A stretch of 64,000 nucleotides of DNA, taken from the NCBI RefSeq assembly GCF_964213995.1, contig NC_135815.1, positions 2,542,001 to 2,606,000 on the forward strand, read 5' to 3'. This document shows positions 1,122 to 62,325 of this stretch, piece after piece. The position numbers and the translations under genes were made by a program. The notes under the pieces were generated by a model, which did no database searches, was not told the origin of the DNA, and saw only the letters and a program-made list of their open reading frames with translations. Each line of letters begins with the position of its first letter. The first letter of the stretch is position 1. This stretch comes from Mustelus asterias. Its lineage: Eukaryota.

Positions 1122-3350
1122 AAAGAACAACACAGCACAGGAACAGGCCCTTCGGCCCTCCAAGCCTGCGCTGCTCATGTGTCCAGCGAGACCATTCGGT
1201 TGTATCCCTCTATTCCCAGTCTGTTCATGTGGCTACCTAGATAAGTCTTAAACGATCCCAGCGTGTCCGCCTCATTCACCTTGCTTGGCAGCGCATTCCA
1301 GGCCCCCACCACCCTCTGTGTAAAATACGTCCCCCTGACATCTGTGTTGAACCTTGCCCCCCTCACCTTGAACCCGTGACCACTTGTGTTCATCACCTCC
1401 GACCTGGGAAAAAGCTTCCCACTGTTCACCCGATCTATGCCCTTCATAATTTTATACACCTCCATTAGGTCGCCCCTCATCCTCCGTCTTTCCAGGGAGA
1501 ACAACCCCAGTTTACCCAATCTCTCCTCATAGCTAAGACCCTCCATAGCAGGCAACATCCTGGTAAACCTTTTCTGCACTCTCTCCAAAGCCTCCACGTC
1601 CTTCTGGTAGTGTGGCGACCAGGACTGGACGCAGTATTCCAAATGTGGCCTAACCAACATTCTATACAGCTGCAACATCATATGCCAACTTTTATATTCT
1701 ATGCCCCATCCAATAAAGGCAAGCATGTCATATGCCTTCTTCACCACCCTCTCCACCTGTGCTGCCACCTTTAAGGATCTGTGGACTTGTATACCCAGGT
1801 CCCTCTGTGTGTCTATATTCCTGATGGTTCTGTCATTTATTGTATAGCTCCCCCTTACATTAGATCTACTGAAATGCATCACTTCGCATTTATCTGGATT
1901 AAATTCCATCTGCCATTTCTCCGCCCAGTGTTCCAGCCTATCTATATCCTGCTGTATTCTCTGACAATGTTCATCACTATCCGCAACTCCAGCAATTTTT
2001 GTGTCGTCCGCAAACTTACTGATCACACCAGCTACATCTTCCTCCAAATCATTTATATATATCACAAACAGCAGAGGTCCCAGTACAGAGCCCTGCGGAA
2101 CACCACTAGTCACAGACCTCCAACCGGAAAAAGACCCCTCCACTGTTACCCTCTGTCTTCTATGGCTAACACAGTAAGAGTTTTAACAACACCAGGTTAA
2201 AGTCCAACAGGTTTATTTGGTAGCAAATGTCATTAGCTTTCGGAGCGCTGCTCCTTCGTCAGATGGAGTGGAAATCTGGGTTCCACTCCATCTGTCGAAG
2301 GAGCAGCGCTCTGAAAGCTAATGGCATTTGCTACCAAATAAACCTGTTGGACTTTAACCTGGTGTTGTTAAAACTCTTACTGTGCTTACCCCAGTCCAAC
2401 GCCGGCATCTCCACTTCTATGGCTAAGCCAGTTCTCCACCCATCTACCGAGCTCACCTTTTATCCCGTGAGATTTAACCTTTTGCACCAGCCTGCCATGA
2501 GGGACCTTGTCAAACGCTTTACTAAAATCCATGTAGACGACATCCACGGTCCTTCCCTCGTCAATTGTTTTTGTCACCTCCTCAAAAAACTCAACCAAAT
2601 TTGTGAGGCATGACCTCCCTCGTACAAAACCATGCTGTCTATCGCTAATGAGATTATTCAGTTCTAAATGCGCATATATCCCATCTCTAAGAATCTTCTC
2701 CAACAATTTCCCTACCACGGACGTCAAGCTCACCGGCCTATAATTACCCGGGTTATCCTTGCGACCTTTCTTAAATAACGGGACCACATTTGCTATCCTC
2801 CAATCCTCTGGGACCTCACCTGTGTCCAGTGAAGAGACAAAGATTTCTGTTAGAGGCCCAGCAATTTCACCTCTTGCCTCCCTGAGGAGTCTAGGATAGA
2901 TGCCATCTGGCCCTGGGGATTTGTCTGTCTTAATGTTTCCTAAAAAACCTAACACTTCCTCCCTTGTAATTGAGATTTTTTCTAATGGGTCAACACATCT
3001 CTCTGAGACACTCCCAGTCAACATGTCCCTCTCCTTTGTGAATACTGGTGCAAAGTATTTGTTTAGGATCTCTCCTATTTCCTTTGGTTCAAAGCATAAT
3101 TCCCCTCCTTTGTCCCTGAGAGGTCCGATTCTTTCCCTAACAACCCTCTTGTTCCTAACGTATGTATAAAATGCCTTAGGATTCTCCTTAATCCTGTCTG
3201 CCAAGGACATTTCGTGACACCTTTTTGCCCTTCAAACTCCCTGTTTGAGTTATTTTCTACTTTCTCTGTATTCCTCCAGTGCTCCATCATGTATGCCTCT
3301 TTTTTCTTTTTGATTAGACCCACAATTTCACTGATTATCCACGGCTCCCG
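1115..3350 (-). mobile_element. CR1 LINE, 5'-truncated ORF2 (RT), interrupted by a Penelope fold-back
   Basis: ORFs 2386..3210 and 1175..2143 with [27 protein letters not shown] and FADD motifs; (TTCTTTG)n tail. Confidence 0.95.
2168..2413. mobile_element. Penelope-like terminal repeat pair in inverted (fold-back) arrangement with hammerhead motifs
   Basis: About 105-bp arms in near-perfect inverted repeat; the same sequence ends the GIY-YIG-bearing fragment at 50608-51228. Confidence 0.85.
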
Positions 3351-20349: not shown

Positions 20350-20640
20350 GGGCCTGATTTTACCATTTTCATTCTGAGGCTGAATCTGGGCGCAATTCAG
20401 ATCCGACTTGGAAATCTGCTCTCAGGCGCCCCCCCCCCCCCCCCATACACACTCAGCCTGCAAAAAAACATCGCGGGTCTGAATCGCACTGTGGGCGGGG
20501 CTTAACGTGCCCGAAACAATCAGAGCTCTGAACTGCGCATGTGCAGTTAGGAAAAGAATTGAAAATGGCGCTCCTGTCGCTCGATCCCGGGCCGCAAAAA
20601 GCGGATAAAGTGGCCCAGGAGCGAAAAGTATCGGTATCGG
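20350..20640 (+). mobile_element. Truncated MITE-family fragment
   Basis: Starts GGGCCTGATTTTACC, similar to the terminus at 36453; GC-rich body. Confidence 0.5.
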
Positions 20641-20649
20641 CCCAGTATC

Positions 20650-21070
20650 GGTCAGAGTGATGTTACTGGCCAGTCTGTAATGGTCAGAGTGATGTTACTG
20701 GCCAGTCTGTAATGGTCAGAAGGACATTACAGACCAGTCTATATCGCTCAGAGTGATGTTACTGGCCAGTCTGTAATGGTCAGAGTGATGTTACTGGCCA
20801 GTCTGTAATGGTCAGAAGGACATTACAGACCAGTCTGTATTGGCCAGAGTGATGTTACTGGCCAGTCTGTAATGGTCAGAGTGATGTTACTGGCCAGTCT
20901 GTAATGGTCAGAAGGACATTACAGACCAGTCTATATCGCTCAGAGTGATGTTACTGGCCAGTCTGTAATGGTCAGTGATGTTACTGGCCAGTCTGTAATG
21001 GTCAGAAGGACATTACAGACCAGTCTATATCACTCAGAGTGATGTTACTGGCCAGTCTGTAATGGTCAGA
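20650..21070. repeat. 32-bp minisatellite with A-A-B higher-order periodicity
   Basis: A = GGTCAGAGTGATGTTACTGGCCAGTCTGTAAT, B = GGTCAGAAGGACATTACAGACCAGTCTATATC. Confidence 0.9.
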
Positions 21071-22553
21071 GGGATGATGCTGTCGGATTTCTCGCTCTAT
21101 CTGGCCCAGCCTCCTGTCTCTCTGAGCCAATTACTGAACCCTGAGTCCTCACCACCTCGAAAACTCAGACAAAATCCAACATTTGTCACACTTTCACAAG
21201 ATTGCTTTTGATAACTGCTTAAGTTTTACTTTGTTCACACAGACAATAAATAAACAGTTGCCAGCTGGACACAGGAGAAACCCTTCAGTGAGATCTTGTT
21301 CTGGGCAATAGAACATATGAGGAACATTCCGAGCCGATGTGATGATACTGTGCCTTTAAGAAATGTATTATAATCATGTTTCTCTGCACAATGTTTATCG
21401 GCACCGTGTTGTCTGCAGCCAGTGTCCTTTAGTGTAACTGAAGCAGTATAATTGTTATCATGCTCATTTGAATCTGAACTAATGCAGAGTCCTGTGATTT
21501 TAATGGTCTCTTTTGGGATTGGAGAGTGGAGCTTGATTGGGGGTGATTGACAAGTCATGTCAGGTGACTGAGGGACGGCTCTCTTTCAAACAGCATTCTC
21601 GTTTTAGTTTTGCTTTCAGAAGCTGCTTGAAGCTCAGAGAAACAGCTTCCCTCTCTCTGGAGTTAGGGTCATTGTTTTGAAGTGGTGATGTGTTGGAAGC
21701 TGCCAGTAACTGGGTTTACCTCTCTGAGGTTGTGCTGTTTTGAGGATATAACCTTCTCTGCAAACTTCTGGCATTTCTATCCATAGGTAGTTACAAAGCT
21801 GAAAATCCAGCATTATGGATATGTGTGGGTGTCACAGGGTAGTTGTCATGGGGGACTTTAACTTTCCAAATATTGATTGGAACTTTGTAGGTCAAATAGT
21901 TCGGATGGGGCAGGTTTTGTGCAGTGTGTGCAGGAGGGTTTCCTGACACAATATGTGGATAGCCCGACAAGAGGTGAGGCCACATTGGATTTGGTACTGG
22001 GAAATAAACCGGGCCAAGTGTTAGGTTTGGTTGTGGGACAGCACTTTGGAGATACTGACCACAATTCGGTGTCTTTTGTTATTGCAATGGAGAGGGATAG
22101 GGCCGTACAGCAGGGCAAGGTTTACAATTGGGGGAGAGGTAATTATGATGCGATTAGGCAAGAATTAGGGGGCATAAGATGGGAACAGAAACTGTCAGGG
22201 AAAGGCACTAATGAAAAGTGGAACTTTTTCAAGGAACAAATACTGGGTGTCCTTGATAGGTATGTCCCTGTCAGGCAGGGAGGAAATGGCCGAGTGAGGG
22301 AACCATGGTTCACAAAAGAGGTGGAATGTCTTGTGAAAAGGAAGAGGGAAGCTTATGTAGGGATGAGGAAACAAGGTTCAGATGGCTCGATTGAGGGTTA
22401 CAAGTTAGCAAGGAATGAGCTGAAAAAGGGGCTTAGGAGAGCTAGGAGGGGACATGAGAAGTCCTTGGCGGGTCGGATCAAGGAAAATCCCAAGGCTTTT
22501 TACTCTTATGCGAGGAATAAAAGAATGACCGGGGTGAGGTTAGGGCCGGTCAA

Positions 22554-25500
22554 GCTCTGGCTGGGAGCTTTGCTAATGCAGTTCGGGGGGGTTTAAACTA
22601 GTATGGCAGGGGGGTGGGGATCAAACTATTAGGTCTATAAGTGTGGTGGCTGGGGACGAGCTTGGGGCTGGGACAAGGCTGGCAAAGAAGAAGAGCACTC
22701 TGGGGGAGGACGACCTCACTGAGCCTGGGGGTCTGGAGTGCTTATACTTCAATGCAAGGAGCGTAGCAGGTAAAACAGACGAACTTGGGGCCTTAATGCG
22801 CACGAGGAATTTGGATGTGGTTGCGGTGACAGAGACTTGGTTGAAAGAGGGACAGGACTGGCAGCTGAATATTCCAGGGTACAAGTGTTTTAGGCGAGAC
22901 AGAGGAGGGGCCAAAAGAGGTGGGGGAGTAGCGGTATTGGTTGGAGAGCATATTACAGCGGTGCAGAGGGAGGACAATTCGGAGGAGTCGTGTAGCGAGT
23001 CACTCTGGGTGGAGCTTAGAAACAGGAAAGGCGCAGTCACTATGTTGGGGGTGTACTACAGGCCCCCCAACAGCCCAAGGGAAGTGGAAGAATGGATATG
23101 TCAGGAGATACTGGATAGGTGCAGGAAATATAGGGTTGTTGTAGTGGGAGACTTCAATTTCCCTGGTATAGACTGGAAATCGCTGAGGGCAGGGACTCTG
23201 GATGGGGAGGAATTTGTAAAATGTGTACAGGAGGGTTCGTTGGAACAATATGTGGACAGCCCGACTAGAGAGGGGGCTATACTGGACCTGGTACTGGGGA
23301 ATGAGCCCGGTCAGGTCTTCAAAGTTTTGGTTGGGGAACATGTGGCAAATAGTGACCACAATTCTGTTAGCTTTAGGATAGTGATGGAAAAGGATGAGTG
23401 GTGTCCCAAGGGTAAGGTGTTGGATTGGGGGAAGGCTAACTTTATTGGGATAAGGCAGAAATTGGCAGCTCTTGATTGGGAGAGGCTGTTTGAGGGTAAA
23501 TCCACATCTGGTATGTGGCAGTCTTTTAAGGAACGGTTGTTAGGGCTACAGGACAAGCATGTGCCTGTAAAAAAGAAGGATAGGAAGGGTAGGATTAGGG
23601 AACCGTGGATAACCAGGGAAATTGAGGGACTGGTCAAAAGGAAAAGAGAGGTGTATGTTAGGTCCAATCAGCTAAAAACGGAGGGAGCTCTGGAGGAGTA
23701 CAATGAAAGTAGGAAAATACTCAAACGGGGAATTAGAAGAGCAAAAAGGGGTCACGAAATGTTCTTGGCAGACAGGATTAAGGAGAATCCCAAGGCATTT
23801 TATTCATACGTTAGGAACAAAAGGGTTGTTAGGGAAAAAATCGGACCTCTCAGGGACAAAAGTGGGGACTTATGCTTGGAGCCCAAAGAGGTAGGGGAGA
23901 TCCTAAATGAATACTTTGCGTCGGTATTCACAAAGGAGAGGGATGTGTTGACTGGGAGTGTCTCGGAGGGGAGTGTTGAACCGTTGGAGAAAATCTCCAT
24001 TACAAAGGAGGAAGTGTTAGGTTTGTTAGAGAATATAAAGACTGACAAATCCCCAGGGCCTGATGGAATCTATCCAAGGCTGCTCAGGGAGACGAGAGGT
24101 GAAATCGTTGGGCCTCTGACGCAAATCTTTGTCTCGTCACTGGACACAGGTGAGGTCCCAGAGGATTGGAGGATAGCCAATGTGGTCCCGTTATTTAAGA
24201 AGGGTAGGAAGGATAACCCGGGTAATTATAGGCCGGTGAGCTTGACGTCCGTGGTGGGGAAGTTGTTGGAGAAGATTCTTAAAGATAGGATGTATGCGCA
24301 TTTAGAAAGGAATAAACTCATTAACGATAGTCAACATGGTTTTGTGAGAGGGAGGTCATGCCTCACTAACCTGGTGGTGTTTATTGAAGAAGTGACCAAA
24401 ATGGTTGACGAAGGAAGGGCCGTGGATGTTGTCTATATGGACTTTAGTAAAGCGTTTGACAAAGTCCCTCATGGTAGGCTAGTGAAAAAGGTTGGATCCC
24501 ATGGGATAAAGGGGGAGGTGGCTAGATGGGTGGAGAACTGGCTTGGTCATAGAAGACAGAGGGTGGTAGTGGAAGGGTCTTTTTCCGGCTGGAGGCCTGT
24601 GACTAGTGGTGTACCGCAGGGCTCTGTATTGGGACCTCTACTGTTTGTGATTTATATAAATGATCTGGAAGAAGGAGTAACTGGGGTGATCAGTAAGTTT
24701 GCGGACGACACAAAACTGGCAGGACTTGCAGATAGTGAGGAACATTGTCAGAGGCTACAGAAGGATATAGATAGGCTGGAAATTTGGGCAAGGAAATGGC
24801 AGATGGAGTTCAATCCTGATGAATGCGAAGTGATGCATTTTGGTGGGAATAATGTAAGGAGGAGCTACACGATAAATGGCAGAACCATAAAGGGTGTAGA
24901 GACACAGAGGGACCTGGGTGTGCAAGTCCACAGATCTTTGAAGGTGACGTCACAGGTGGAGAAGGTGGTGAAGAAGGCATATGGCATGCTTGCCTTTATA
25001 GGACGGGGCATAGAGTATAAAAGTTGGGGTCTGATGTTGCAGATGTATAGAACGTTGGTTCGGCCGCATTTGGAATACTGCGTCCAGTTCTGGTCGCCAC
25101 ACTACCAGAAGGACGTGGAGGCTTTGGAGAGAGTACAGAGGAGGTTTACCAGGATGTTGCCTGGTATGGAGGGGCTTGGTTATGAGGAGAGATTGGGGAA
25201 ACTGGGGTTGTTCTCCTTGGAAAGACGAAGGATGAGGGGAGACTTAATAGAGGTGTATAAAATTATGAAAGGCATAGATAGGGTGAACGGTGGGAAGCTT
25301 TTCCCCGGGTCGGTGGTGACGTTCACGAGGGGTCATAGGTTCAAGGTGAAGGGGGGGAGGTTTAACACAGATATCAGAAGGACATATTTCACACAGAGGG
25401 TTGTGGGGGCCTGGAATGTGTTGCCGGGCAAGGTGGTGGAGGCGGACACACTGGGAACGTTTAAGACTTATCTAGACAGCTATATGAACGGAGTGGGAAT

Positions 25501-25965
25501 GGAGGGATACAAAAGAGTGGTCTAGTTTGGACCAGGGAGCGGTGCGGGCTAATTGTTCCTTGTTTCTCGTGGAAGTGGAAATGACTAGGGTTGAGAAGCA
25601 TTTTCCGATCAGGGCCATTGTGATCTCCTGGACTCGTTTCGATCGCCTCAGGGGGTCGGAGAGGAATTTCCCAGATTTTCTTTCCCCATATTGGCCCTGG
25701 GGTTTTTCACTCTGGGTTTTCGCCTCTCCCTGGAGATCACATGGTCTGGAATGGGGGGGTGGGGGTGAGTTAATAGGTTGTAATGAACAAAGCATCGTAG
25801 CTGTGGGGGACAGCTCGGTGGATAGGATATTGGTATGTAGATAGGCTGGAAAATTGGGCGGGGATCCTGGATTCAGGATTCAATCCTGGACCGGGGAGCG
25901 GCGCGGGCTTGGAGGGCCGAAGGGCCTGTTCCTGTGCTGTATTGTTCTTTGTTCTTTGTTCTTTG
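22554..25965 (+). mobile_element. CR1 element B (young; ORF1 C-terminus, intact ORF2, extended 3' UTR)
   Basis: ORF1 end LAGSFANAVRGGLN* at 22601; (TTCTTTG)n tail. Confidence 0.95.
22592..25525 (+). CDS. CR1 ORF2: APE endonuclease + reverse transcriptase, uninterrupted
   Basis: 960-aa ORF 22643..25525, open upstream to FKLVWQ at 22592; [30 protein letters not shown] and FADD motifs. Confidence 0.95.
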   Translation, partial: FKLVWQGGGDQTIRSISVVAGDELGAGTRLAKKKSTLGEDDLTEPGGLECLYFNARSVAGKTDELGALMRTRNLDVVAVTETWLKEGQDWQLNIPGYKCFRRDRGGAKRGGGVAVLVGEHITAVQREDNSEESCSESLWVELRNRKGAVTMLGVYYRPPNSPREVEEWICQEILDRCRKYRVVVVGDFNFPGIDWKSLRAGTLDGEEFVKCVQEGSLEQYVDSPTREGAILDLVLGNEPGQVFKVLVGEHVANSDHNSVSFRIVMEKDEWCPKGKVLDWGKANFIGIRQKLAALDWERLFEGKSTSGMWQSFKERLLGLQDKHVPVKKKDRKGRIREPWITREIEGLVKRKREVYVRSNQLKTEGALEEYNESRKILKRGIRRAKRGHEMFLADRIKENPKAFYSYVRNKRVVREKIGPLRDKSGDLCLEPKEVGEILNEYFASVFTKERDVLTGSVSEGSVEPLEKISITKEEVLGLLENIKTDKSPGPDGIYPRLLRETRGEIVGPLTQIFVSSLDTGEVPEDWRIANVVPLFKKGRKDNPGNYRPVSLTSVVGKLLEKILKDRMYAHLERNKLINDSQHGFVRGRSCLTNLVVFIEEVTKMVDEGRAVDVVYMDFSKAFDKVPHGRLVKKVGSHGIKGEVARWVENWLGHRRQRVVVEGSFSGWRPVTSGVPQGSVLGPLLFVIYINDLEEGVTGVISKFADDTKLAGLADSEEHCQRLQKDIDRLEIWARKWQMEFNPDECEVMHFGGNNVRRSYTINGRTIKGVETQRDLGVQVHRSLKVTSQVEKVVKKAYGMLAFIGRGIEYKSWGLMLQMYRTLVRPHLEYCVQFWSPHYQKDVEALERVQRRFTRMLPGMEGLGYEERLGKLGLFSLERRRMRGDLIEVYKIMKGIDRVNGGKLFPGSVVTFTRGHRFKVKGGRFNTDIRRTYFTQRVVGAWNVLPGKVVEADTLGTFKTYLDSYMNGVGMEGYKRVV

Positions 25966-26730: not shown

Positions 26731-28845
26731 ATAAGACCATAAGACCATAAGACATAGGAGCGGAAGTAAGGCCATTCGGCCCATCGAGTCCACTCCACCA
26801 TTCAATCATGGTTGATTTCAACTCCATTTACCCGCTCTCTCCCCATAGCCCTTAATTCCTCGAGAAATCAAGAATTTATCAATTTCTGTCTTGAAGACGC
26901 TCAACGTCTCGGCCTCCACAGCCCTCTGTGGCAATGAATTCCACAGACCCACCACTCTCTGGCTGAAGAAATTTCTCCTCATCTCTGTTCTAAAGTGACT
27001 CCCTTTTATTCTAAGGCTGTGCCCCCGCGTCCTAGTCTCCCCTGTTAATGGAAACAACTTCCCTACGTCCATCCTATCTAAGCCGTTCATTATCTTGTAA
27101 GTTTCTATCAGATCTCCCCTCAACCTCCTAAACTCCAATGAATATAATCCCACGATCCTCAGACGTTCATCGTATGTCAGGCCTACCATTCCTGGGATCA
27201 TCCGTGTGAATCTCCGCTGGACCCGCTCCAGTGCCAGTATGTCCTTCCTGAGGTGTGGGGCCCAAAATTGCTCACAGTACTCCAAATGGGGCCTAACCAG
27301 TGCTTTATAAAGCCTCAGAAGTACATCCCTGCTTTTGTATTCCAAGCCTCTTGAGATAAATGACAACATTACATTTGCTTTCCTAATTACGGACTCAACC
27401 TGCAAGTTTACCTTTAGAGAATCCTGGACTAGGACTCCCAAGTCCCTTTGCACTTTAGCATTATGAATTTTGTCACCGTTTAGAAAATAGTCCATGCCTC
27501 TATTCTTTTTTCCAAAGTGTACGACCTCGCACTTGCCCACGTTGAATTTCATCAGCCACTTCTTGGACCACTCTCCTAAACTGTCTAAATCTTTCTGCAG
27601 CCTCCCCACCTCCTCAATACTACCTGCCCCTCCACCTATCTTTGTATCATCGGCAAACTTGGCCAGAATGCTCCCAGTCCCGTCATCTAGATCGTTAATA
27701 TATAAAGAGAACAGCTGTGGCCCCAACACTGAACCCTGCGGGACACCACTTGTCACCGGTTGCCATTCTGAGAAAGAACCTTTTATCCCAACTCTCTGCC
27801 TTCTGTCTGACAGCCAATCGTCAATCCATGTTAGTACCTTGCCTCGAATACCATGGGCCCTTATTTTACTCAGCAGTCTCCCGTGAGGCACCTTGTCAAA
27901 GGCCTTTTGGAAGTCAAGATAGATAACATCCATTGGCTCTCCTTGGTCTAACCTATTTGTTATCTCTTCAAAGAACTCTAACAGGTTTGTCAGGCACGAC
28001 CTCCCCTTACTAAATCCATGCTGACTTGTCTTAATCCGACCCTGCACTTCCAAGAATTTAGAAATCTCATCCTTAACGATGGATTCTAGAATTTTGCCAA
28101 CAACTGAGGTTAGGCTAATTGGCCTATAATTTTCCATCTTTTTTCTTGTTCCCTTCTTGAACAGTGGGGTTACAACAGCGATTTTCCAATCCTCTGGGAC
28201 TTTCCCTGACTCCAGTGACTTTTGAAAGATCATAACTAACGCCTCCACTATTTCTTCAGCTATCTCCTTCAGAACTCTAGGATGTAGCCCATCTGGGCCC
28301 GGAGATTTATCAATTTTCAGACCTTTTAGTTTCTCTAGCACTTTCTCCTTTGTGATGGCAACCATATTCAACTCTGCCCCCTGACTTTCCTGAATTGTTG
28401 GGATATTACTCATGTCTTCTACTGTGAAGACTGACGCAAAGTACTTATTAAGTTCCTCAGCTATTTCCTTGTCTCCCATCACTAGATTACCAGCGTCATT
28501 TTGGAGCGGCCCAATGTCTACTTTTGCCTCCCGTTTGTTTTTAATGTATTTAAAGAAACTTTTACTATCATTCCTAATGTTACCGGCTAGCCTACCTTCA
28601 TATTTGATCCTCTCCTTCCTTATTTCTCTCTTTGTTATCCTCTGTTTGTTTTTATAGCCTTCCCAATCTTCTGACTTCCCACTACTCTTTGCCACATTAT
28701 AGGCTCTCTCTTTTGCCTTGATGCATTCCCTGACTTCCTTTGTCAGCCATGGCTGCCTAATCCCCCCTCTGATAACCTTTCTTTTGTTTGGGATGAACCT
28801 CTGCACTGTGTCCTCAATTACTCCCAGAAACTCCTGCCATTGCTG
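26731..28845 (-). mobile_element. CR1 element C, 5'-truncated with open RT, nested in element A
   Basis: ORF 26818..28992 (about 675 aa of it CR1-derived); (TCTTATGG)n tail. Confidence 0.95.
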
Positions 28846-30444
28846 TTCAGTGCTTGGTCTTCTGCTCTTTGTGATTTTTATTAATGACTTAGAGGAGGGG
28901 GCTGAAGGGTGGATCAGTAAATTTGCTGATGACACCAAGATTGGTGGAGTAGTGGATGAGGTGAAGGGCTGTTGTAGACTGCAAAGAGACATAGATAGGA
29001 TGCAAAGTTGGGCTGAAAAATGGCAAATGGAGTTTAACCCTGATAAATGTGAGGTGATTCATTTTGGTAGGACTAATTTAAATGTGGATTACAGGGTCAA
29101 AGGTAGGGTACTGAAGACTGTGGAGGAACAGAGAGATCTTGGGGTCCATATCCACAGATCTCTAAAGGTTGCCACTCAAGTGGATAGAGCTGTGAAGAAG
29201 GCCTATAGTGTGTTAGCTTTTATTAACAGGGGGTTGGAGTTTAAGAGCCGTGTGGTTATGCTGCAACTGTACAGGACCTTGGTGAGACCACATTTGGAAT
29301 ATTGCGTGCAGTTCTGTGGAAGCGCTGGAAAGAGTGCAGAGGAGATTTACCAGGATGCTGCCTGGTTTGGAGGGTAGGTCTTATGAGGAAAGGTTGAGGG
29401 AGCTAGGGCTGTTCTCTCTGGAGAGGAGGAGGCTGAGGGGAGACTTAATAGAGGTTTATAAAATGATGAAGGGGATAGATAGAGTGAACGTTCAAAGACT
29501 ATTTCCTCGGGTGGATGGAGCTATTACAAGGGGGCATAACTATAGGGTTGGTGGTGGGAGATATAGGAAGGATATCAGAGGTAGGTTCTTTACGCAGAGA
29601 GTGGTTGGGGTGTGGAATGGACTGCCTGCAGTGATAGTGGAGTCAGACACTTTAGGAACATTGAAGCAGTTATTGGATAGGCACATGGAGCACACCAGGA
29701 TGATAGGGAGTGGGATAGCTTGATCTTGGTTTCAGATAAAGCGCGGCACAACATCGTGGGCCGAAGGGCCTGTTCTGTGCTGTACTGTTCTATGTTCTAT
29801 CACTTGTTTTTGTGCTAGGTCTGGAGATGGGTGTGTGTCTTTGGGATGGTGTTTAACTAGGGACAACAGCGATAGCTAGCTGTTAGGAGTTACACTGTAT
29901 CATGTTCAAGCCTTGTATTTGGTAAAAGTTATGCTAATTCTTTTTGTATCTGTGTTCTTAAATAAACTTGGTTTGATAAAAGCTTCCCAGTGGGTCGCTT
30001 GAATCATACCTGGAGTGAAACACCTTCTGCTCCCAATGCCAAAATCAAATGTAAAACTGAGGGTCTAGGCTAACTTCACAAAACACCTTGGAGTCTCTGG
30101 CCTGGGTCTGAACACTGGAAAACAAAACAAGTCTGTTCCCCATCAGCTCACCCGGTCCACCAATCCCCTTCCCTTCCAGAATCTCATTCCTTTCCTCTTG
30201 ATCCCAGTGATTCTGTTCATATCAGGAACATTCTTTGCTGAATGATCCCTCAGTCCCATTTGCCATTGGGTAACGATCTTCTGTCTGATTCTTACCTTTC
30301 TTCCCCTCTTTCCAATCTCATTCTCCTGGGATTTGAACAATTTGCTTTGACACTTTTCATCATCTTAGAATTCAAGGAACGCCAACTGAAATTTTCCACT
30401 TTGTTGTCTCCCTATCTGCGCTACTCCCCTCACTGTCTCCTCTC

Positions 30445-31655: not shown

Positions 31656-32240
31656 CTCCTCCCTCACTCTCTCCTCTCCACCTCTGTCACTCTCCTCTCT
31701 CCTCATCCCTTACTCTCTGCTCTCCTCCTCGCTCTCTCTCCTCTCCCCTCCCTCCCTCTCTCCTCTCCCTCTGTCTCCTCTCTCCTCTCTTCACTCTCTG
31801 CCCTATCCTCCCCCCCCACATCTCCCCTCTCTCCACTCCCCTCCCTCCCTCTCTGCCCTACCCTCCCTCCCTCTCTCAATTCCCCTCCCTCCCTCTCTGC
31901 TCTACCCTCCCTCCCTCTCTCCATTCCCCTCCCTCCCTCTCTGCCCTACCCTCCCTCCCTCTCTCCATTCCCCTCCCTCCCTCTCTGCCTTACCCTCCCT
32001 CCCTCTCTCAATTCCCCTCCCTCCCTCTCTGCTCTACCCTCCCTCCCTCTCTCCATTCCCCTCCCTCCCTCTCTTCCCTACCCTCCCTCCCTCTCTCCAT
32101 TCCCCTCCCTCCCTCTCTGCCCTACCCTCCCTCCCTCTCTCCATTCCCCTCCCTCCCTCTCTGCCCTACCCTCCCTCCCTCTCTCCTCTCCTCTCCCTCC
32201 CTCTCTGCTCTCCCCTCTCTCACTCACTTTTCTCTCCTTC
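31655..32240. repeat. CT-rich low-complexity polypyrimidine tract with internal duplications
   Basis: Repeated CCCTCCCTCCCTCTCT units. Confidence 0.9.
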
Positions 32241-32692
32241 TTCTTGGTGCTCTGAGGGTTATCTCTCTCAGGATTGAGTTGTTTGAATGTTGGTGAAGTG
32301 ATTCTCTGCTCAGTGTGGAGTCTGACTGCTGATGTCCCCGGTCACAGTCCTGGTGCTTGTTGTTGCTATTTGCCCTTTCGCTGCATCAACCTTTCCAAAT
32401 ACATCGCTGACTGCTCGTCGGCTCAATCCTGACATTGTGTCCAGTTAGGCCGAACGTGGCTAAATCTGTATGGCTAAATCATGAAATCAAATCTAATCTT
32501 CTGTTTTGAATGATTCTGTAATAACTGCAGTTAAATAAGAATGTTAATGCATTGAGCCCAATGGTGAATTTACTATTTGCTAATAAATCATCAATTTTCT
32601 CACTGTAACGATTGTTTTAAAGGATATTTTCAATAATATTTTAAACCAGCTGTTTGAAGATTGCAATAATGCTCTTGAAGATTATGAAAGAA

Positions 32693-36310: not shown

Positions 36311-37769
36311 GATTTATCCACCCTCAAGCCCCACCTCCACCCAATTTCCCTGTCCCACTTTAAAATGTTGTTTAAAATCCCCTCCCTCCCTCTCTTCCTC
36401 CCTCCCATCCTGTACATTGCCCAGAGGTTGAAGGGGAAGAAACACACGCACTGGGGCCAATTTTACCAAATCGGCTCTAAGTGCCGGGTGCGGTCGTAAA
36501 TCAGACCCGCGCCCGGCAGCCGCGCTCCGGCGCCCCCATACGCCTTTTTTCGGCGCGGGTCCAGTGGGCGGGGCCCAGCGCATTTGCATCTGTCGGAGCG
36601 CCGAACCGCGCATGCGCAGCCCGGAACCGCCAGCACTCAGCGCGCCCGAGCGCGGAAGTCAAAGGCAGCGCTGACAGCAATGCTCTCTGCACTGCCTCTG
36701 ACTTTCCCTCGTGGGTGGGTGGGGGGGGGGGGGGGGGGGGGTGGGATGTGACGTCTCCGCCCTCCCCAGGGGCAGAGACGTCACATACCCCCCACCCCCC
36801 CCCCCCCACCCCTCAGGGAATAGACGTCACATCCCCCCCCCCCCACCCACCCCCCGCCCCCCCCCCCCCCCAGTGAAGAGACGTCATCCTACCCATCAGG
36901 ACCCCCGGAGCAAGGCCAGGATCCAGGATCACAAGATGCTTTCGACGGACACCAGCGATCAAGGTAGGTCAGGGGCCCGGGGGGTCCAATCCCGGGGGGG
37001 CGGGGGGGGGGAGGGGGGCAGCTGGCGGGGCCTGCGTCCCAGGGTGGTCCGATCGGGGGGGGTGGTGGGCTGCCGGGGTGGTTCGCGGGGGCGGTCCGCG
37101 AAGGGTGGTCGGGGGCGATTCGGCGGTTCAGTTGCTGAGTTGAAGCCCTATCGGACTTGAATTCAGCAACATGGTAAATGCGCGGCGCCGATCGGATCGG
37201 AGCCTCATAAAGTGGGAATCCTCGGGTAAGTTGGGCGCGGGCTTCATTGTGCCGATTTAAATGCATGCAAATGCATTTAAATCGGCCCGCTGGCCGATTC
37301 GGGCACGCGCCGGATCGGCTCCCAGATCAGCCATTGCTAAAGGCGCAATTGGCCTTGGGTTGGGTCTGGACCACGTTGTAGGCCCGATGCCCAACTTTAC
37401 CACTGATGCACCTCAATGAGCACCCGGAAACAAGGCTTTAGAACTGAAGGCTTTAATACATTAACAATGAAACTACTAACACAAATTCACCCGTTCAGAC
37501 TGAAGGGGTCCTGCCGGAGCAGGGGGTCTTATACCCTGCCACCGGAGGCGGGACCCCACTGGAGTGTGCCATGATAACACCCAGGACAGGTAAACACCCT
37601 ATCCCAACAACATAGTACAACCCCCATAACAACAACACCCTAGCCCAACAGTAATACAATAACAACCCCAGTGGTGAACCAACGATGGTTCACCACATTC
37701 ACCCCTCCTTTAGGAACCAAAGGTGGCGGGGTGGATGAAAACAGACAATGACAAAAAAAATAACAGGAT

Positions 37770-38940
37770 TCACAAGTCCAGACGGTCTGGAGGACCACAC
37801 CGACGCTGCGATCTTCTCAACACCGGTTGCGAAACCGGAGCAGGTGCTTGCGGTGGCTCTCTCAAAACAACATCTGGCTGTCCCCTCAAAGACTCCCGGG
37901 CCGGCCGGCCCTGATGAGGCGATGGTGTAGGGGATCCTGGAACGTTTGGTGGTGGTGGTGGTGGTGATGATGGTGGCGCCGATCTCCGAGTCTCAGGCAA
38001 GCTGTACATGGGAGTAAAAGTGTTATGCACTGGTCCCGGTGCTGACCGCGCCACGTCTGGGGAAGTAATGAGGAGTAGTGGATCTGTGACTGGGGGAATA
38101 GGAGCGACAGGAGTTGCTACGTCCCCTGCGGGCGCCAGGTCTCTAATGGAGACAGTGTCCTCTCGCCCGTCAGGATATGCCACATAGGCATACTGAGGGT
38201 TGGCGTGGAGGAGTTGGACCGGTTCGACCAAGGGGTCGGACTTGCGAGCCCTCACATGGCGCCGCAGAAGGACGGGTCCTGGGTACGTCAACCAGGCTGG
38301 CAATGAGGTCCCCGAGGACGACTTCCGAGGGAATGAGAACATCCTCTCGTGGGGAGTAGCATTGGTTGCCGTACACAGGAGGGAGCGGATAGAATGGAGC
38401 GCAGTTGGAAGGACCTCCTGCCACCGGGAGACTGGAAGGCCCTTGGATTTCAGTGCCAGTAGGACAGCCTTCCAGACTGTAGCATTCTCCCTTTCCACCT
38501 GTCCGTTACCCCTAGGGTTGTAGCTCGTGGTTCTACTAGAGGCAATCCCGAATGAGAGCAGGAATTGCCTCAAGTCGTTGCTCATGAACGACGAGCCCCT
38601 GTCGCTATGAATATAGCAGGGGTACCCGAACAGGGTAAAAAGCTCACTGAATGCCTTGATGACGGTGGCAGTCGACGTGTCCGCACAGGGGAAAACAAAC
38701 GGAAACTGGGAAAATTCGTCTATTATGTTAAGAAAATAGACATTCCGATCCGTTGAGGGAAGGGGGCCCTTAAAATCTACACTCAGCCTCTCAAAAGGGC
38801 GAGTGGCCTTGACCAAATGTGCCCGGTCTGGTCGATAAAAGTGTGGTTTGCATTCTGCGCAAATCCGACAACTTCTAGTAACTGACCTGACCTCCTCCAC
38901 CGAGTAGGGTAGGTTGCGGGCTTTTATGAAGTTCAGTGAG
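37770..38940 (-). CDS. Gypsy integrase (N-terminal HH lost, out of frame with RT)
   Basis: CRIC, VDFKGP, IHSDRG, GQVER (DDE core). Confidence 0.9.
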
Positions 38941-41157
38941 TGGGCGCATACGGTCTGGATCAGGGCCAATGACCCCGTTTTCCACCACGTATCCGAGGAT
39001 GGCTAACCTATGCGTACGGAATACGCACTTCTCCCTGTTATAGGTCAGATTCAGGCGAGATGCAGTGCGTAGAAAGTGTTGGAGATTCGTGTCGTGGTCC
39101 TGCTGGTCATGGCCGCAGATGGTGACGTTATCCAGGTACGGGAAGGTAGCCCGCAACCCGTTCTGGTCCACCATTCGGTCCATAGCACGCTGGAAGACCG
39201 AGACCCCATTGGTGACACCAAATGGAACCCTGAGGAATTGGTATAGACGACCATCCGCCTCAAAAGCCGTATATTGTCGGTCCTCTGGGCGGATGGGGAG
39301 TTGATGGTAGGCGGACTTAAGGTCTATGGTAGAAAACACTCGGTACTGCGCAATCTGATTGACCATATCAGAAATGCGCGGGAGAGGATACGCATCCAGC
39401 TGCGTGTATCTATTAATGGTCTGACTATAGTCGATGACCATCCGAGGTTTGTTCCCGCTTTTGACTACCACGACCTGCGCTCTCCACGGACTAGCACTGG
39501 CCTGTATGATCCCTTCCTTGAGGAGCCGCTGAACCTCAGATCTAATAAAGATCCGGTCCTCAGCGCTGTAACGCCTACTTTTAGTAGCGATGGGCTTGCA
39601 GCCAGGTACCAGATTTTTAAAAAGGGATGGTGTCGTGATCTTCAGGGTGGATAGATTGCACGCGGGGCGCTTTGGGCAATTTGGAGGCTGCGGCTGGTTC
39701 CCTACTGCCAGTGAAGGGAGTGGCCCACCGTACTGTAGGATCACACTCCTCATGTGGGCCATAAAGTTTAGTCCGAGGAGAATTGGCGCGCAAAGGTGAG
39801 GTAGCACAAGGAGCCTGTATTGCTCGTAAACTGTGCCCTGTACCTCAAGAGTTACCATACATTGTCCTTGGATCGGTACAGACCGGGACTGTGATGCCAT
39901 GGAAATTGTCTGTTTGGCAGGGAGAACCCGGAGTCCACACCTTTTAGCAGTTTCAGGGTGTATGAAACTTTCGGTGCTCCCACTGTCAAACAGACAATTT
40001 ACAGTTCTGCCACTAACCTTTACCTCCATCATGGAATGTTCCAGTCTGTAATGCCTGGTCTGATCCAGAGAGATCGACGCCACCGTTGGCCCCTGGGTGT
40101 CACTGCATGCTGCCGATGTGGATGCTGAGGACCCCTGCTGGTCGCTGCTGCATGCTGCCGATGTGGATGCTGAGGACCCCTGCTGGTCGCTCCTAGTCGT
40201 CGTGGACCATGATGGCCGCCCCCATGAATCGCATGTGGCCGAGGGCTCCAAGCGCAGCGACTCCTGGTGGTCTTCCTCCTCCTCTGTCTGCCACGATGGC
40301 GCCGTCCTGAGATCGCACGTGGTCGGACCTCGTGGGTACTGCAGCGCCGAAAGAGATGGTCTCCGTTCTGGAGGGTTACAAGCTGCACTGCCGTTTTTAG
40401 GTTTGGACCTGCAGACTTTGCCGTAGTGGCCTTTTTTACCGCACTGGCTGCAGATTGCCGTTCTTGCCGGACACTGTTGCCGTGGATGCTTGGCCCCACC
40501 GCAAAAATAGCATCGCTGGCCACCTGGAGCTGCCGCCGTCGTCGAATCGATCTGGGAGCGCGGGTTCGCGGGGCGAGGAGGGAGCAGAGCTTGCTCCAAC
40601 CACGTTGACTGCACGTGGTCCTCGGGGTACAGCGCCAAGCTCTTCGACGCCGCCTCCAACCTCACGGCCATCCCCATTGCCTGGGTCAAGTTGAGTTTCC
40701 CCTTTTCTAATAATTTAAGTCTGATGTACGAGGACCCTACCCCTGCTACGAACGCGTCTCGGGCGAGGTCTTGCATGTACTGCTCGGCGGAGACATCCTT
40801 ACAGTCACAACCCCTGGCAAGCTGCAGGAGTTCATTGGCGTAGTCTTCTATGGTCTCGCCCGACTGCCGACGTCGTGTAGCGAGGAGATAACGAGCGTGA
40901 ATCTCGTTGGGTGGCGTAATGTACCTATTCTTTAGGAGCTCGACGGCACCCTGGTAAGTGGAAGCTGCACGAATGGCTAGGTAAATCGTGTCGCTTACCC
41001 TTGCGTGGAGGACCTGGAGTCTATCACTGTCTGTAGTGATAGCTACCGAGGCTGCCAGGTAGTCCTCGAAGCACTTCCACCAATGTTCGAACGTGTTAGC
41101 TGCACCGACCGCACGTGGGTCCAGTGTCAGACGATCCGGTTTTAGGATCTGTTCCAT
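38875..41157 (-). CDS. Gypsy gag-protease-RT (truncated by deletion)
   Basis: MEQILKPDRL..., two CCHC knuckles, LFDSGS protease, RT motifs IDLKSAYHQ, PFGV and YLDN. Confidence 0.92.
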   Translation of the reverse strand: MEQILKPDRLTLDPRAVGAANTFEHWWKCFEDYLAASVAITTDSDRLQVLHARVSDTIYLAIRAASTYQGAVELLKNRYITPPNEIHARYLLATRRRQSGETIEDYANELLQLARGCDCKDVSAEQYMQDLARDAFVAGVGSSYIRLKLLEKGKLNLTQAMGMAVRLEAASKSLALYPEDHVQSTWLEQALLPPRPANPRSQIDSTTAAAPGGQRCYFCGGAKHPRQQCPARTAICSQCGKKGHYGKVCRSKPKNGSAACNPPERRPSLSALQYPRGPTTCDLRTAPSWQTEEEEDHQESLRLEPSATCDSWGRPSWSTTTRSDQQGSSASTSAACSSDQQGSSASTSAACSDTQGPTVASISLDQTRHYRLEHSMMEVKVSGRTVNCLFDSGSTESFIHPETAKRCGLRVLPAKQTISMASQSRSVPIQGQCMVTLEVQGTVYEQYRLLVLPHLCAPILLGLNFMAHMRSVILQYGGPLPSLAVGNQPQPPNCPKRPACNLSTLKITTPSLFKNLVPGCKPIATKSRRYSAEDRIFIRSEVQRLLKEGIIQASASPWRAQVVVVKSGNKPRMVIDYSQTINRYTQLDAYPLPRISDMVNQIAQYRVFSTIDLKSAYHQLPIRPEDRQYTAFEADGRLYQFLRVPFGVTNGVSVFQRAMDRMVDQNGLRATFPYLDNVTICGHDQQDHDTNLQHFLRTASRLNLTYNREKCVFRTHRLAILGYVVENGVIGPDPDRMRPLTELHKSPQPTLLGGGGQVSY

Positions 41158-41671
41158 ATTCTCAGTTAATGTATTAAATTGATGCACCTCAATGAGCACC
41201 CGGAAACAAGGCTTTAGAACTGAAGGCTTTAATACATTAACAATGAAACTACTAACACAAATTCACCCGTTCAGACTGAAGGGGTCCTGCCGGAGCAGGG
41301 GGTCTTATACCCTGCCACCGGAGGCGGGACCCCACTGGAGTGTGCCATGATAACACCCAGGACAGGTAAACACCCTATCCCAACAACATCGTACAACCCC
41401 CATAACAACAACACCCTAGCCCAACAGTAATACAATAACAACCCCAGTGGTGAACCAACGATGGTTCACCACAACCACGTGCGAAATTTTGGTAAAACCG
41501 GGCCCACTGGCTGGCTGGAGAAAATATTCAGCATGTAGAATCTGCACTGTACCACCAGAGGGCACTGATGTTCCACACACCTCATACTGGCTGCATCGCA
41601 AAGGGGCTGAGATTTCTACAATATAAAACACACTGGACTCATACTTTCTGAGCACGAGCTCATCTAAACTC

Positions 41672-42217: not shown

Positions 42218-43529
42218 TGTGACGGGGGTGAGGGGTAGGGCAGGGATTGAGGAGGGGGTTGGGGAGGGGGTGAGTGGTGGGGGTGGGGCAGGGGGTGAGG
42301 AGGGGGTTGGGGAGGGGTGGCGGTGGGGCAGGGGGTGAGGGGGGGTTGGGGATGGGGTGGGGGTGGGGCAGGGGGTGAGGAGGGGGTTGGGGAGGGGGTG
42401 AGGGGTGGGGCAGGGGGTGAGGGGTGGGGCAGTGGGTGACAGTGGGTGATGGAATGCCAGCGTGGTTCTGGGTATTCCAGTCCCCTTGCTCACTGACTGC
42501 TGACTTTCACACTCGGTGCCCGCACGCTGTTACTCCCTTTGCCAGTGCGAGATTCGCTGGCACTCTGGGGAATGAAGATTGGGGACAGTGAGAGCAGGGA
42601 CAGCATCACCATTGACAACTGCAGAGAAACGCCATCTGATTTTAATTACCCGGTGGAGCCAAGTTGAAGACAGATGTTTACCTTGAAGGAGCGTAAAGAG
42701 ACAGATTCGAACATTCATTTCCATGCATTTTGAACAAAGGTGCTGATAAAAGCCAGGTGGCTGCCTGCGGCACACATTCAGCGTACACACTTCACCGAGG
42801 GACAGCCTCCAGCCCCACTGCTTAATGAGAGCTGTCACATGTTATTTAGAGGAAGTTTATTATTTTAGCAAGTCTGATGGAATCTGACAACCCTGACTCT
42901 TCAGAACAGCACATGATTGGCTGAAGCAGATGAGACTTCAGGGGAGTCGACCCCTGACCCCTGTCGTTTAGTCAGGGAGCAGGAGATCAGCTTTGGATCT
43001 TCACTGATCATTTCAGACCATTTCCCATCTGTGATTCTGACTTGAGAGAGAAACTTGACTTGCTCAACGTCTCAGCGTTCAACTGAGAGTGAAGAGGGAG
43101 TTAGGAAACGGAGATTGTTGGCATCAAAATAGAAGCAGATCCGACTGATTCAACTTATCAAACCAGTTGGGCGAAATAGTCCGTGTGGTAAAATAGATGA
43201 TTCCATATCAACAGCCCCATTCCCAAGCCTCTGATATCAGTGAATGTTGAACAGTCAACGTGTGATCACCAGAGGACAATTTCACCCCATCTGAAACTTG
43301 CCAAAAACAGACCAGTAAATCTCGGCGCAACAAATTCCCCCCAAACAGCAACCTGATCACTGCACGCTAATCTGTTTCTGTCTAGTCGAATGGGGGATAA
43401 ACCTTTGGCAGAACACGAGGGAGATCTCCTCTACTCTTCAAAGCAGTGGCACAGGAACTTTCTCATCACCAGGCAGAGCAGATAGGGTCCTCGTTCCAAT
43501 ATACCACCCAATTACAGAACCAGTGAAAA

Positions 43530-43864
43530 CACAGTTCTCCCTCAGTCCCAGCACAGCTCTCCCTCAGTCCCAGCACAGCTCTCCCTCAGTCCCAGCACAG
43601 CTCTCCCTCAGTCCCAGCACAGCTCTCCCTCAGTCCCAGCACAGCTCTCCCTCAGTCCCAGCACAGCTCTCCCTCAGTCCCAGCCCAGTTCTCCCTCAGT
43701 CCCAGCCCAGCTCTCCCTCAGTGCCAGCCCAGCTCTCCCTCAGTGCCAGCCCAGATCTCCCTCAGGACCAGCCCAGCTCTCCCTCAGGACCAGCCCAGTT
43801 CTTCCTCAGGACCAGCCCAGCTCTCCCTCAGGACCAGCCCAGTTCTTCCTCAGGACCAGCCCAG
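43530..43864. repeat. 20/21-bp minisatellite grading from CAGCTCTCCCTCAGTCCCAGCA to CAGTTCTTCCTCAGGACCAGCC
   Basis: Visible tandem units with progressive sequence drift. Confidence 0.9.
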
Positions 43865-43984
43865 GTATTTCAGGCAAATTATAAACTCAGCTATATCACT
43901 GTTCCTTCCACGTTGTTGGGTCAAAGACCATAAAATCCCTTCCCTCCAGCACAGTGAATACACGAGGCCAGCTCATCATCACAG

Positions 43985-57430: not shown

Positions 57431-57550
57431 TACCCTTCCTCCTTTGGTATTCTGTCAGTCTTTTTAGAAATATCATGCACCCCAGACTATTTACTTCCCA
57501 ACCTTGGTCACCTTGTAACCATGTCTCTCCCCACCAGCAGCAACACTTAC

Positions 57551-58583
57551 TGAAAAGTCAGCATCCTCGGCTCGGAGATGGTTGGCGATGTAGTGTACTC
57601 CCTCCAGGGCTCTGATGATGCTGGGTGAGAGCAGCAGGGTGGGTTCCGCCTGGGTGCCATTATTCAGACTGCTTCTCTGGCTGTGATTGGCTCTCCCAGC
57701 TGGATACCGGTTGGGTTCATGGCGACACTGGTATCCGTGACTGTGGTGGCCCATTGTCCTGGGGTGACACAGGGGCAGGCTGAAACAGGGGGCCTCGGGC
57801 TCTGTTTGGGGGGAGCATCGCGGGGGGCTAAGCTTCAGCTCCAGCAGGCTGAAGTGATTGGTGAAGGTTTCCGTCTTGGGTCCAGGCCTCTTCATGAAGA
57901 GCCAGCGAGGAATGAAATCCAGGAAGACCTTCCGTACCCACCTGGGCATCTTGTGTGTGTTGGGCGAGCGATGATGGACGTTGAGGACAAAGACGGTGAT
58001 AACAATGGAGAGGGTGACAAAGATCATGGTGAACAGTAGGTATTCACCGATTAGCGGGATGACGAGGGAGGTGGAGGGGATGATCTCTGTTATAAGCAGC
58101 AGGAAGACAGTGAGAGACAGCAACACCGATATGCAAAGCGTGATCTTCTCTCCGCAGCCTGATGGTAAATAGAAGACCAAGACAGTCAGACAGGAGATGA
58201 GCAAACAGGGAATGATGAGGTTAATGGTATAGAAGAGGGGAAGTCTCCTGATAATGAAGGAGTATGTGATATCGACATACACCTCAGAGCAACAGTCATA
58301 CTTCTTGCTGTTGTAAATTCCCACAGCGTTGACTATTGCCCACTCGCCACTCTCCCAATAGTCCTTCAGATCCACGTTCCTGCCCATGCTCCTCAGATCA
58401 ATCTTGGACTTGTCGTGCGTCCAGGAGCCAAATTTCATTTTACAATTCTGCTGGTCGAATGGAAAGAATGTGACGTCAATACTACAGGAGCTCTTGTAGA
58501 TCGCCGGGGGCACCCACTGAACTCTGCCCGTGGAGTAGAGGTGAGCCTTGGTCATGTGGGTGACAGCAAACTCCCCGTCTGCA
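57551..58583 (-). CDS. CHRNA2: nAChR alpha-2 large exon (Cys-loop, loop C, M1-M3, intracellular loop)
   Basis: TTCCAG|(N)[15 protein letters not shown]...[19 protein letters not shown]...YDCC...AEDADFS|GTAAGT. Alpha-2-type residues and a short M3-M4 loop argue against alpha-4. Confidence 0.92.
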
Positions 58584-58794
58584 CTGGAACATGCAAATAC
58601 AACGGGTTTATACAGCTGTCAGGACCAGGGAGTAAGTTATCATTAAGACAAAGCTGGTACTTTAACTTTCAAATAATGCATGCTTGCTAAATCTAACCTA
58701 TCCATCTCCCTCGAAGGTGCAGCCCTTGCAGTTTATTGTAATCAGTCTGAATTAATGAACAGTTAACTTTACATTGATTAAAATGGATAGAATT

Positions 58795-61159: not shown

Positions 61160-61790
61160 CTATCCCACCAATAACCTGCCCTGCTCCCCCCATGCCAACA
61201 TAATAGTTAAGAAAGCCCATCAGTGCCTCTACTTTCTCAGAAGACTAAGGAAATTTGGCATGTCAGCTACGACTGTCACCAGCTTTTACAGATGCACCAT
61301 AGAAAGCATTCTTTCTGGTTGTATCACAGCTTGGTCTGGGGCTCCTGCTCTGCCCAAGACCGCAAGGAACTACAAAAGGTCATGAATGTAGCCCAATCCA
61401 TCATGCAAACCAGCCGCTTATCTATTAACTCTGTCTACACTTCCCACTGCCTTGACAAAGCAGCCAGCATAATTAAGGACCCCACGCACCCCGGACATTC
61501 TCTCTTCCACCTCCTTGCATCGGGAAAAAGGATACAAAAGTCTGAGGTCACATACCAACCGACTCAAGAACAGCTTCTTCCCTGCTGCCATCAGACTTTT
61601 GAATGGACTTACCTTACATTAAGTTGATCTTTCTCTACACCCGAGCTATGACTGTAACACTACATTCTGCACTCTCTCCTTTCCTTCTCTAAGAACGGGA
61701 TGCTTTGTCTGTATAGCGCGCAAGAAACTATACTTTTCATTGTATACTAATACATGATAAATCAAGTCAAATAAATCAAATCAAACTTTA
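61160..61790 (+). mobile_element. Rex1/Babar-type LINE 3' fragment
   Basis: KKAHQCLYFLRRLRKFGMS, YRCTIESILSGCITAW. Confidence 0.85.
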
Positions 61791-61844
61791 ATAAACGGTC
61801 TCTTAATGTGTCCTGTCATCTTGAAAGATTATCACATATGCACA

Positions 61845-62182
61845 CGCATGCACACACACACACAGGCATGCACACACACACACAGGCATGCACACACACG
61901 CACAGGCATGCACACACACGCACAGGCATGCACACACACGCACAGGCATGCACACACACGCACAGGCATGCACACACACACACAGGCATGCACACACACA
62001 CACAGGCATGCACACACACGCACAGGCATGCACACACACGCACAGGCATGCACACACACACACAGGCATGCACACACACGCACAGGCATGCACACACACG
62101 CACAGGCATGCACACACACACACAGGCATGCACACACACACACAGGCATGCACACACACACACAGGCATGCACACACACGCA
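61845..62182. repeat. 20-bp minisatellite (CACAGGCATGCACACACAC[A/G])n
   Basis: About 16 tandem units. Confidence 0.95.
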
Positions 62183-62325
62183 CTGTTCCCTTTAATCCTG
62201 CACTCTTTAGAATTGTACCATCAAGGTTAGATTATTCTCCCTGTTGCTTCTGTGAAAATACACCGCTGACCTTCCTCTGTATTAAATCTCTGAAGAATTT
62301 CATCCCTTGAAATTGTGAAACTTAC

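Follow-up and report, generated by a model that had tools for sequence, protein, structure and literature searches.

A Gypsy element in a 64,000-nucleotide stretch of the Mustelus asterias genome (the window) belongs to a widespread clade whose members probably prime their own reverse transcription. We put at roughly seven in ten the chance that the primer is an internal LTR segment of the element's own RNA, freed by a cut at the 3′ end of this segment, and not a tRNA. The segment (the arm) and the site of primer binding (the PBS) are complementary, stand in a fixed geometry and covary.

The element occupies 41473-37404 on the minus strand (4,070 bp; positions are those of the window). Its two 294-bp LTRs differ by one base. 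A reading of this DNA made from the sequence alone had reported a 5-bp target-site duplication and two zinc knuckles, and both are indeed present, as GTGGT and as two CCHC knuckles (Table 1). The TG...CA LTRs, the target-site duplication and the polypurine tract are Ty3/Gypsy features, as is the domain order protease, RT, RNase H, integrase: protease, RT and integrase are found in the window copy, and RNase H in relatives and in full-length sister copies of 4.7 kb. The best match of the enzyme among solved structures is that of Ty3. In the window copy RNase H is lost through a deletion of about 650 nt, which had escaped the sequence-only reading. A domain search of the frames of this copy gave no RNase H family hit, and it would need the enzymes of its sister copies. 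The family (family A) is young, since the 40 best-scoring of 2,267 candidate copies are about 100% identical over the LTR and the gag start. A 45-nt tandem duplication in gag (approximately 40103-40194) is absent from some sister copies. The closest named Gag homologs come from sharks (65-88% identical) and more distant ones from a ray, catsharks, a sea cucumber, a tunicate and a leafhopper, and Gag relatives with E ≤ 1e-10 form 1,390 clusters at 50% identity. No relative of the element was found in the viral contigs searched, and a search of the ESM Atlas returned generic names only.

Table 1. Features of the Gypsy element in the window, from its 5′ to its 3′ side
Feature	Positions	Strand	Basis or remark
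5′ target-site duplication GTGGT	41474..41478	-	flanks of element compared
5′ LTR, 294 bp, TG...CA	41180..41473	-	identical ends in full-length sister copies
TATA-like box TATAAG	41304..41309	-	sequence motif
Inr-like TCAGTC	41274..41279	-	putative transcription start near 41277; spacing from TATA 32-33 nt in families A, B, C, E, G
Arm, candidate self-primer, ends in ATTAAA	41228..41241	-	complementarity to PBS
GCC directly 3′ of arm; predicted cut 41228/41227	41225..41227	-	GCC follows arm in 176/185 shark copies
One-base spacer A between LTR end and PBS	41179	-	offset 1 in 15/16 elements
Self-complementary PBS	41165..41178	-	exact complement of arm
gag-protease-RT frame, ends just past deletion	38875..41157	-	ORF and domain hits
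Two CX2CX4HX4C zinc knuckles	40411..40512	-	translation
Junction of ~650-nt deletion (RNase H and integrase start gone)	38928..38932	-	comparison with sister copies
Integrase core and C-terminus, no chromodomain hit	37770..38927	-	domain search
Polypurine tract	37698..37711	-	sequence
3′ LTR with second arm copy at 37452-37465	37404..37697	-	LTR comparison
3′ target-site duplication GTGGT	37399..37403	-	flanks of element compared

Elsewhere in the window, a 375-aa stop-free frame (57491-58618, minus strand) matches both domains of a neurotransmitter-gated ion channel and is intronless over both; it is possibly a retrocopy or a single-exon receptor gene. LINE-type endonuclease/RT frames occur at 22577-25525 (plus strand), 26818-29058 and 1175-2182 (both minus strand), one of them running for 982 aa without a stop. 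Tandem arrays are present at 1-570, 20600-21100, 31700-32300, 43450-43900 and 61750-62250, with periods of 21, 32, 22, 22 and 10-20 nt, respectively.

On the minus strand, the 14 nt of the PBS, TTTAATACATTAAC (41178-41165), are the exact reverse complement of GTTAATGTATTAAA (41241-41228) in the LTR. The sequence-only reading had drawn attention to this pair, and we recovered it at the same coordinates, together with the other landmarks that it had described: a PBS lacking TGG and preceded by a single A, a gag ATG (at 41157) located 22 nt after the LTR, a TATAAG box upstream of the arm, and ATTAAA as the last six bases of the arm. The match does not continue beyond these 14 nt in either direction, and the arm ends 48 nt before the LTR end. 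When the LTR was dinucleotide-shuffled 1000 times, the longest match had a mean of 4.5 nt and a maximum of 10, and 0/1000 shuffles reached 14. The helix formed by arm and PBS has a mean pair probability of 0.99 in the window copy and of 0.87-0.99 in all 18 elements folded, and the GCC that follows the arm is predicted by folding to begin a second helix with the end of U5. The folding energy of the whole region is unremarkable (z = -1.51, with 18/200 shuffles as stable), so that the support comes from complementarity and covariation and not from stability.

Six more families of the shark genome (B to G) were fetched with related Gag queries, making seven with family A. From 200 loci given, 188 copies were parsed and pairing was scored over 13 positions, a copy with at least 10 being taken as paired; 185 of the 188 reach this level. 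Each of the families B to G has its own 13-17-nt arm and a matching PBS, and the pair is identical in 30/30 of the closest copies of the window element. Outside family A, 1,949 pairs are Watson-Crick, 14 are G-U and 52 are mismatched. At polymorphic sites, complementarity was found in 60/65 cases in family B (32.5 when shuffled; G:C, C:G and T:A haplotypes occur), 25/27 in family G (18.1 when shuffled) and 38/47 in family C (21.2 when shuffled), counts that are inflated by shared descent; a CpG change from C:G to T:A can also arise independently on both sides. More telling is that every common haplotype at the variable sites of arm and PBS is complementary, transversions included. The compensatory changes that the sequence-only reading had proposed to look for thus exist across the shark families, and also in the distant relatives described below. 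Of 14 copies with a mismatch or another oddity, 11 had a 3′ LTR for comparison, with a mixed result that is not diagnostic: some of these 3′ LTRs match the PBS, and in three copies both LTRs are alike, yet mismatched to the PBS at a variable site. Three loci (L427, L428 and L181) carry different common arm haplotypes in their 5′ and 3′ LTRs, with a PBS matching the 3′ LTR, a split for which gene conversion or intermolecular strand transfer is a possible origin.

A PBS matching a host tRNA had been named as one observation that would overturn self-priming. Seven PBS sequences were compared with a partial set of 83 tRNA genes representing 10 anticodon types, and within this set no match exceeded 7 Watson-Crick nt; tRNA prediction in intron mode gave some over-long calls, which only enlarged the target set. 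An Rfam search over the LTR yielded nothing credible.

Outside the shark, relatives were sought in metagenome contigs with RT; the Gag alignment was too variable for seeding a scan. Among 80 loci, a Gag start was found in 55 and enough upstream DNA in 46. A perfect pair of 11-19 nt, with the same geometry as in the shark, is present in 36 of these 46 testable loci; their arms amount to about 24 distinct ones when counted by eye, many loci being near-copies, and for some of them the 3′ LTR confirmed where the LTR ends. Throughout the clade, the LTR ends in CA and is followed by one spacer base and the PBS, the arm ends 35-65 nt before the LTR end and is mostly followed by RCC, and the PBS partner starts 1-2 nt from the LTR end in all elements. 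In five loci (L098, L100, L101, L103 and L119) a small hairpin starts at the 3′ end of the arm, where the sharks have a longer helix with the U5 end. No 11-nt pair was found in 10/46 loci. Six of these were placed on the RT tree and all fall inside the clade, two of them adjoining near-identical matched copies, which suggests that the pairless loci reflect decay. L217 is not a single copy with primer read-through, as considered at one point, but a member of a subfamily that numbers about 590 copies and has a PBS of 15 nt.

Two TGG-primed Gypsy families from the same genome served as controls: the self-match did not exceed 7 nt in 19/19 LTR-like pairs (20 regions), with LTR ends that were set automatically and are in some cases misplaced. 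The Gypsy elements fetched include a young 7-8-kb family with a TTTTTGG primer site and frames of up to about 1,990 aa (L381-L391, L397, L398), which may be Gmr1-like, and an older 4.5-kb family with a GTGGCG primer site (L393-L396, L399, L400), which may be Mag-type. In an RT tree built without named references or a chromovirus RT, and carrying a long-branch warning, 38 clade rows split from the TGG families at 100/99; two positive loci without RT and one short row were left out. A chromovirus outgroup was sought in 16 genome regions, which gave two RTs, one an unrelated long branch and the other a short clade member left out of the tree. The family with a TGGCG PBS in the same genome, presumably Mag-type, has an RT only 30-40% identical to that of the clade and lies outside it on the tree. 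Mag-type elements have a Gag with two CCHC knuckles and produce 5-bp duplications, and Cigr-1 carries one ORF, about 1200 aa long. As these elements are commonly described, the clade resembles them in its two CCHC knuckles, its 5-bp duplication, the length of the relatives (1192-1246 aa) and the presence of one Gag homolog from a tunicate. Neither a Chromo nor an SH3_Tf2-1 hit was obtained in the window integrase or in 4/4 full polyproteins of relatives. As far as these two domains are concerned, this agrees with the earlier proposal of a non-chromovirus lineage.

In five of the six shark families checked (A, B, C, E and G), a TATA box is followed at 32-33 nt by an Inr-like TCAGTC or TTAGTC; no Inr match was seen in the copy of family D that was scanned. 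This Inr lies 36-57 nt before the arm in the shark families, and about 36 nt before it in the window copy, so that the arm is predicted to be internal to the RNA and not at its 5′ end. No clear TATA-Inr pair was detected in 11 metagenome LTRs scanned. The earlier suggestion of an internal R-region segment as primer fits the conserved TATA-Inr pair; that the arm is the primer, and that its 5′ rather than its 3′ copy is used, we infer. In every shark family the last six bases of the arm are AATAAA or ATTAAA. Counted by eye, about 14 of the roughly 24 distinct metagenome arms contain such a hexamer and about 10 do not. L100 and L103 have it past the arm end, by 26 and 5 nt, and none was found in L098, L119 and L120.

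We searched for junctions at which the LTR end and PBS are intact and the following bases differ from normal. In family A, 5/5 such junctions go on with sequence complementary to the part of the LTR upstream of the arm, which extends over more than 120 nt in four of them and over 3 nt in one. The four long ones (three independent, two being duplicates) have intact ends and exact 5-bp duplications, and consist of LTR bases 1-246, then minus-sense U5, then internal sequence and the 3′ LTR. One of two altered junctions in family B is of the same fold-back type. Family G provided 32 fold-back junctions, 30 of which were fetched: 18 have the structure LTR-A-PBS-inverted LTR with a target-site duplication, which is exact in 15 and has a single mismatch in 3 (two of these insertions are duplicates). 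Another 2 are ordinary elements that carry a point variant, and the remaining ones have more complex structures. The palindromic insertions of this family (G000, L483-L512, L451) measure about 540-610 bp and occupy at least 17 distinct sites, with 5-bp duplications. The predicted RNA start is not the end point of any inverted run; most reach LTR base 1, and two in family G carry on through the polypurine tract to the 3′ end of the internal region. In 3/10 resolved events (L449, L491 and, ambiguously, L486), the minus-sense stretch finishes no more than 2 nt from the predicted cut, a weak clustering noticed post hoc (p about 0.04). L490 and L504 are separate insertions, with apparent duplications, of one small rearranged unit (the LTR as far as the end of the arm, a short piece of inverted U5, and U5 once more), possibly a tiny non-autonomous family.

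Because the ends are intact and flanked by target-site duplications, the rearrangement took place before integration; it shows that annealing of arm and PBS, followed by extension, occurs in pre-integration DNA. The simplest source, we infer, is plus-strand strong-stop DNA that terminates in the primer copy and has snapped back onto the arm it carries; template switching inside the complement would leave an identical product. The fold-backs prove pairing in DNA intermediates, not the use of the RNA arm as minus-strand primer, and 13-15 nt could seed a template switch. Snap-backs fit a report that Tf1 cDNA often retains a copy of the PBS at its 3′ end (PMC11042837).

How might the arm act on the RNA? 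In Tf1, RNase H cuts the RNA between bases 11 and 12 (PMC7175516), inside a structure of three duplexes (10.1101/2022.12.06.519325). By analogy, the element's RNase H would cut at the junction between arm and RCC. Transcription would start about 36 nt before the arm, and the 5′ R-region arm would fold onto the PBS beside a second short helix. Extension from the new 3′ end at the arm would cross U5, and the first strand transfer would rely on the short piece of RNA that separates the cut from the poly(A) site. Copying of the primer into plus-strand strong-stop DNA would then keep PBS and arm in agreement and allow occasional snap-back. The cut, the enzyme and the use of the 5′ arm copy are proposals. 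As the end of an LTR is set by the start point of minus-strand synthesis, the primer must pair at the PBS, and since the PBS tracks its own arm base by base, the primer is most likely the arm.

The arm could also be used from its 3′ copy, the RNA 3′ end or an LTR-only transcript being cut or trimmed to the arm end and annealing to the PBS in cis or on a co-packaged RNA. Such a source is unlikely, even with an arm that is present in both LTRs and ends in a poly(A) hexamer in every shark family, and with the two family-G junctions at which the inverted LTR is followed by polypurine tract and internal 3′ end, both of which speak for it. It requires the loss of the downstream bases and of the poly(A) tail and consumes the acceptor for the first strand transfer; moreover, folds of the 5′ region already give the arm:PBS duplex in cis (probability 0.87-0.99), and a template cut at the arm end would be in line with the weak clustering of minus-sense ends found at this place.

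Priming exactly as in Tf1, with an RNA beginning at the first base of the arm and its 5′ end as primer, is appreciably less probable. Published self-primers are located at the RNA 5′ end (PMC7175516, 10.1101/2022.12.06.519325), a point in its favor to which the 11 metagenome LTRs without a clear TATA-Inr pair can be added. In the shark families with the pair, however, the RNA would start well before the arm, and the distance to the arm varies whereas the TATA-Inr spacing is constant.

In HIV-1, the polyA hairpin masks the 5′ poly(A) signal and prevents early polyadenylation. A duplex serving mainly this purpose in the 5′ LTR, with another RNA as primer, appears slightly less probable again than a Tf1-like start. 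The hexamer in all shark arms and in about 14 of 24 metagenome arms, and a partner for the arm that exists only in the 5′ context, are what such masking would predict. Yet the arms without a hexamer (about 10 of 24), together with L100 and L103, whose hexamer lies past the arm, imply that masking is not the common denominator, and the three loci without any hexamer point the same way. G-U pairs are rare (14/2015), the partner always lies 1-2 nt from the LTR end, the position required of a primer, and any other primer would need to match the changing PBS of each family. Masking may nevertheless be a second function of the duplex. Least probable is priming by a host small RNA, such as a tRNA or a tRNA half, with the LTR match as a by-product: Copia lineages are known to have half-tRNA primers that lack TGG (PMC6317226) and the tRNA comparison covered 10 anticodon types only, but some 30 distinct PBS sequences follow the LTR of their own element, even in single-base haplotypes, the best tRNA match is 7 nt, and Rfam offered no credible candidate.

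Self-priming by the internal arm invites comparison with known systems. The clade shares with Tf1/Tf2, Tj1, Tosmo and the Tf1/sushi chromoviruses a PBS that complements the element's own LTR and no tRNA, predicted adjoining helices, and the Gypsy domain order. In Tf1/sushi elements the primer is the RNA 5′ end and a chromodomain is present (10.1101/2022.12.06.519325), whereas the present clade has an 11-19-nt arm predicted to lie 36-57 nt inside the RNA and often ending in a poly(A) hexamer, two zinc knuckles and no chromodomain. Self-priming was predicted for plant Tcn1 chromoviruses and Copia TAR elements (Houba, Osr-1) from a complement of at least 10 nt between the LTR and the post-LTR sequence, so that an origin outside Tf1/sushi has already been proposed for TAR (PMC6317226); unlike the present clade, these elements have plant hosts, and TAR has the Copia domain order. 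The RT motif has no match in the accessible supplements of PMC6238403. No description of self-priming in an animal non-chromovirus Gypsy clade was found in the available parts of the open literature, including PMC4600332, PMC3601003, PMC6934838, PMC6238403, PMC12440569 and PMC8556966.

A wider proposal is tentative, and we hold it at somewhat less than even odds: in a large animal Gypsy clade, self-priming would have evolved independently of chromoviruses and would involve cutting a capped RNA internally, behind the poly(A) signal, one duplex would both make the primer and silence the 5′ poly(A) site, and the palindromic snap-back LTR insertions would represent a new class. Self-priming is regarded as characteristic of Tf1/sushi chromoviruses and of a small number of plant lineages. 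If our interpretation is true, a second abundant and recently mobile animal clade uses an internal primer, and independence from tRNA would be far commoner than assumed. Elements of this clade would be invisible to the tRNA-based PBS filters used in LTR annotation, and probably also to silencing by tRNA fragments. The system offers a clear test of RNase H cutting an RNA duplex deep inside a capped RNA, and wherever the clade occurs, the fold-back insertions can be mined as a lasting trace, in the genome, of reverse-transcription intermediates.
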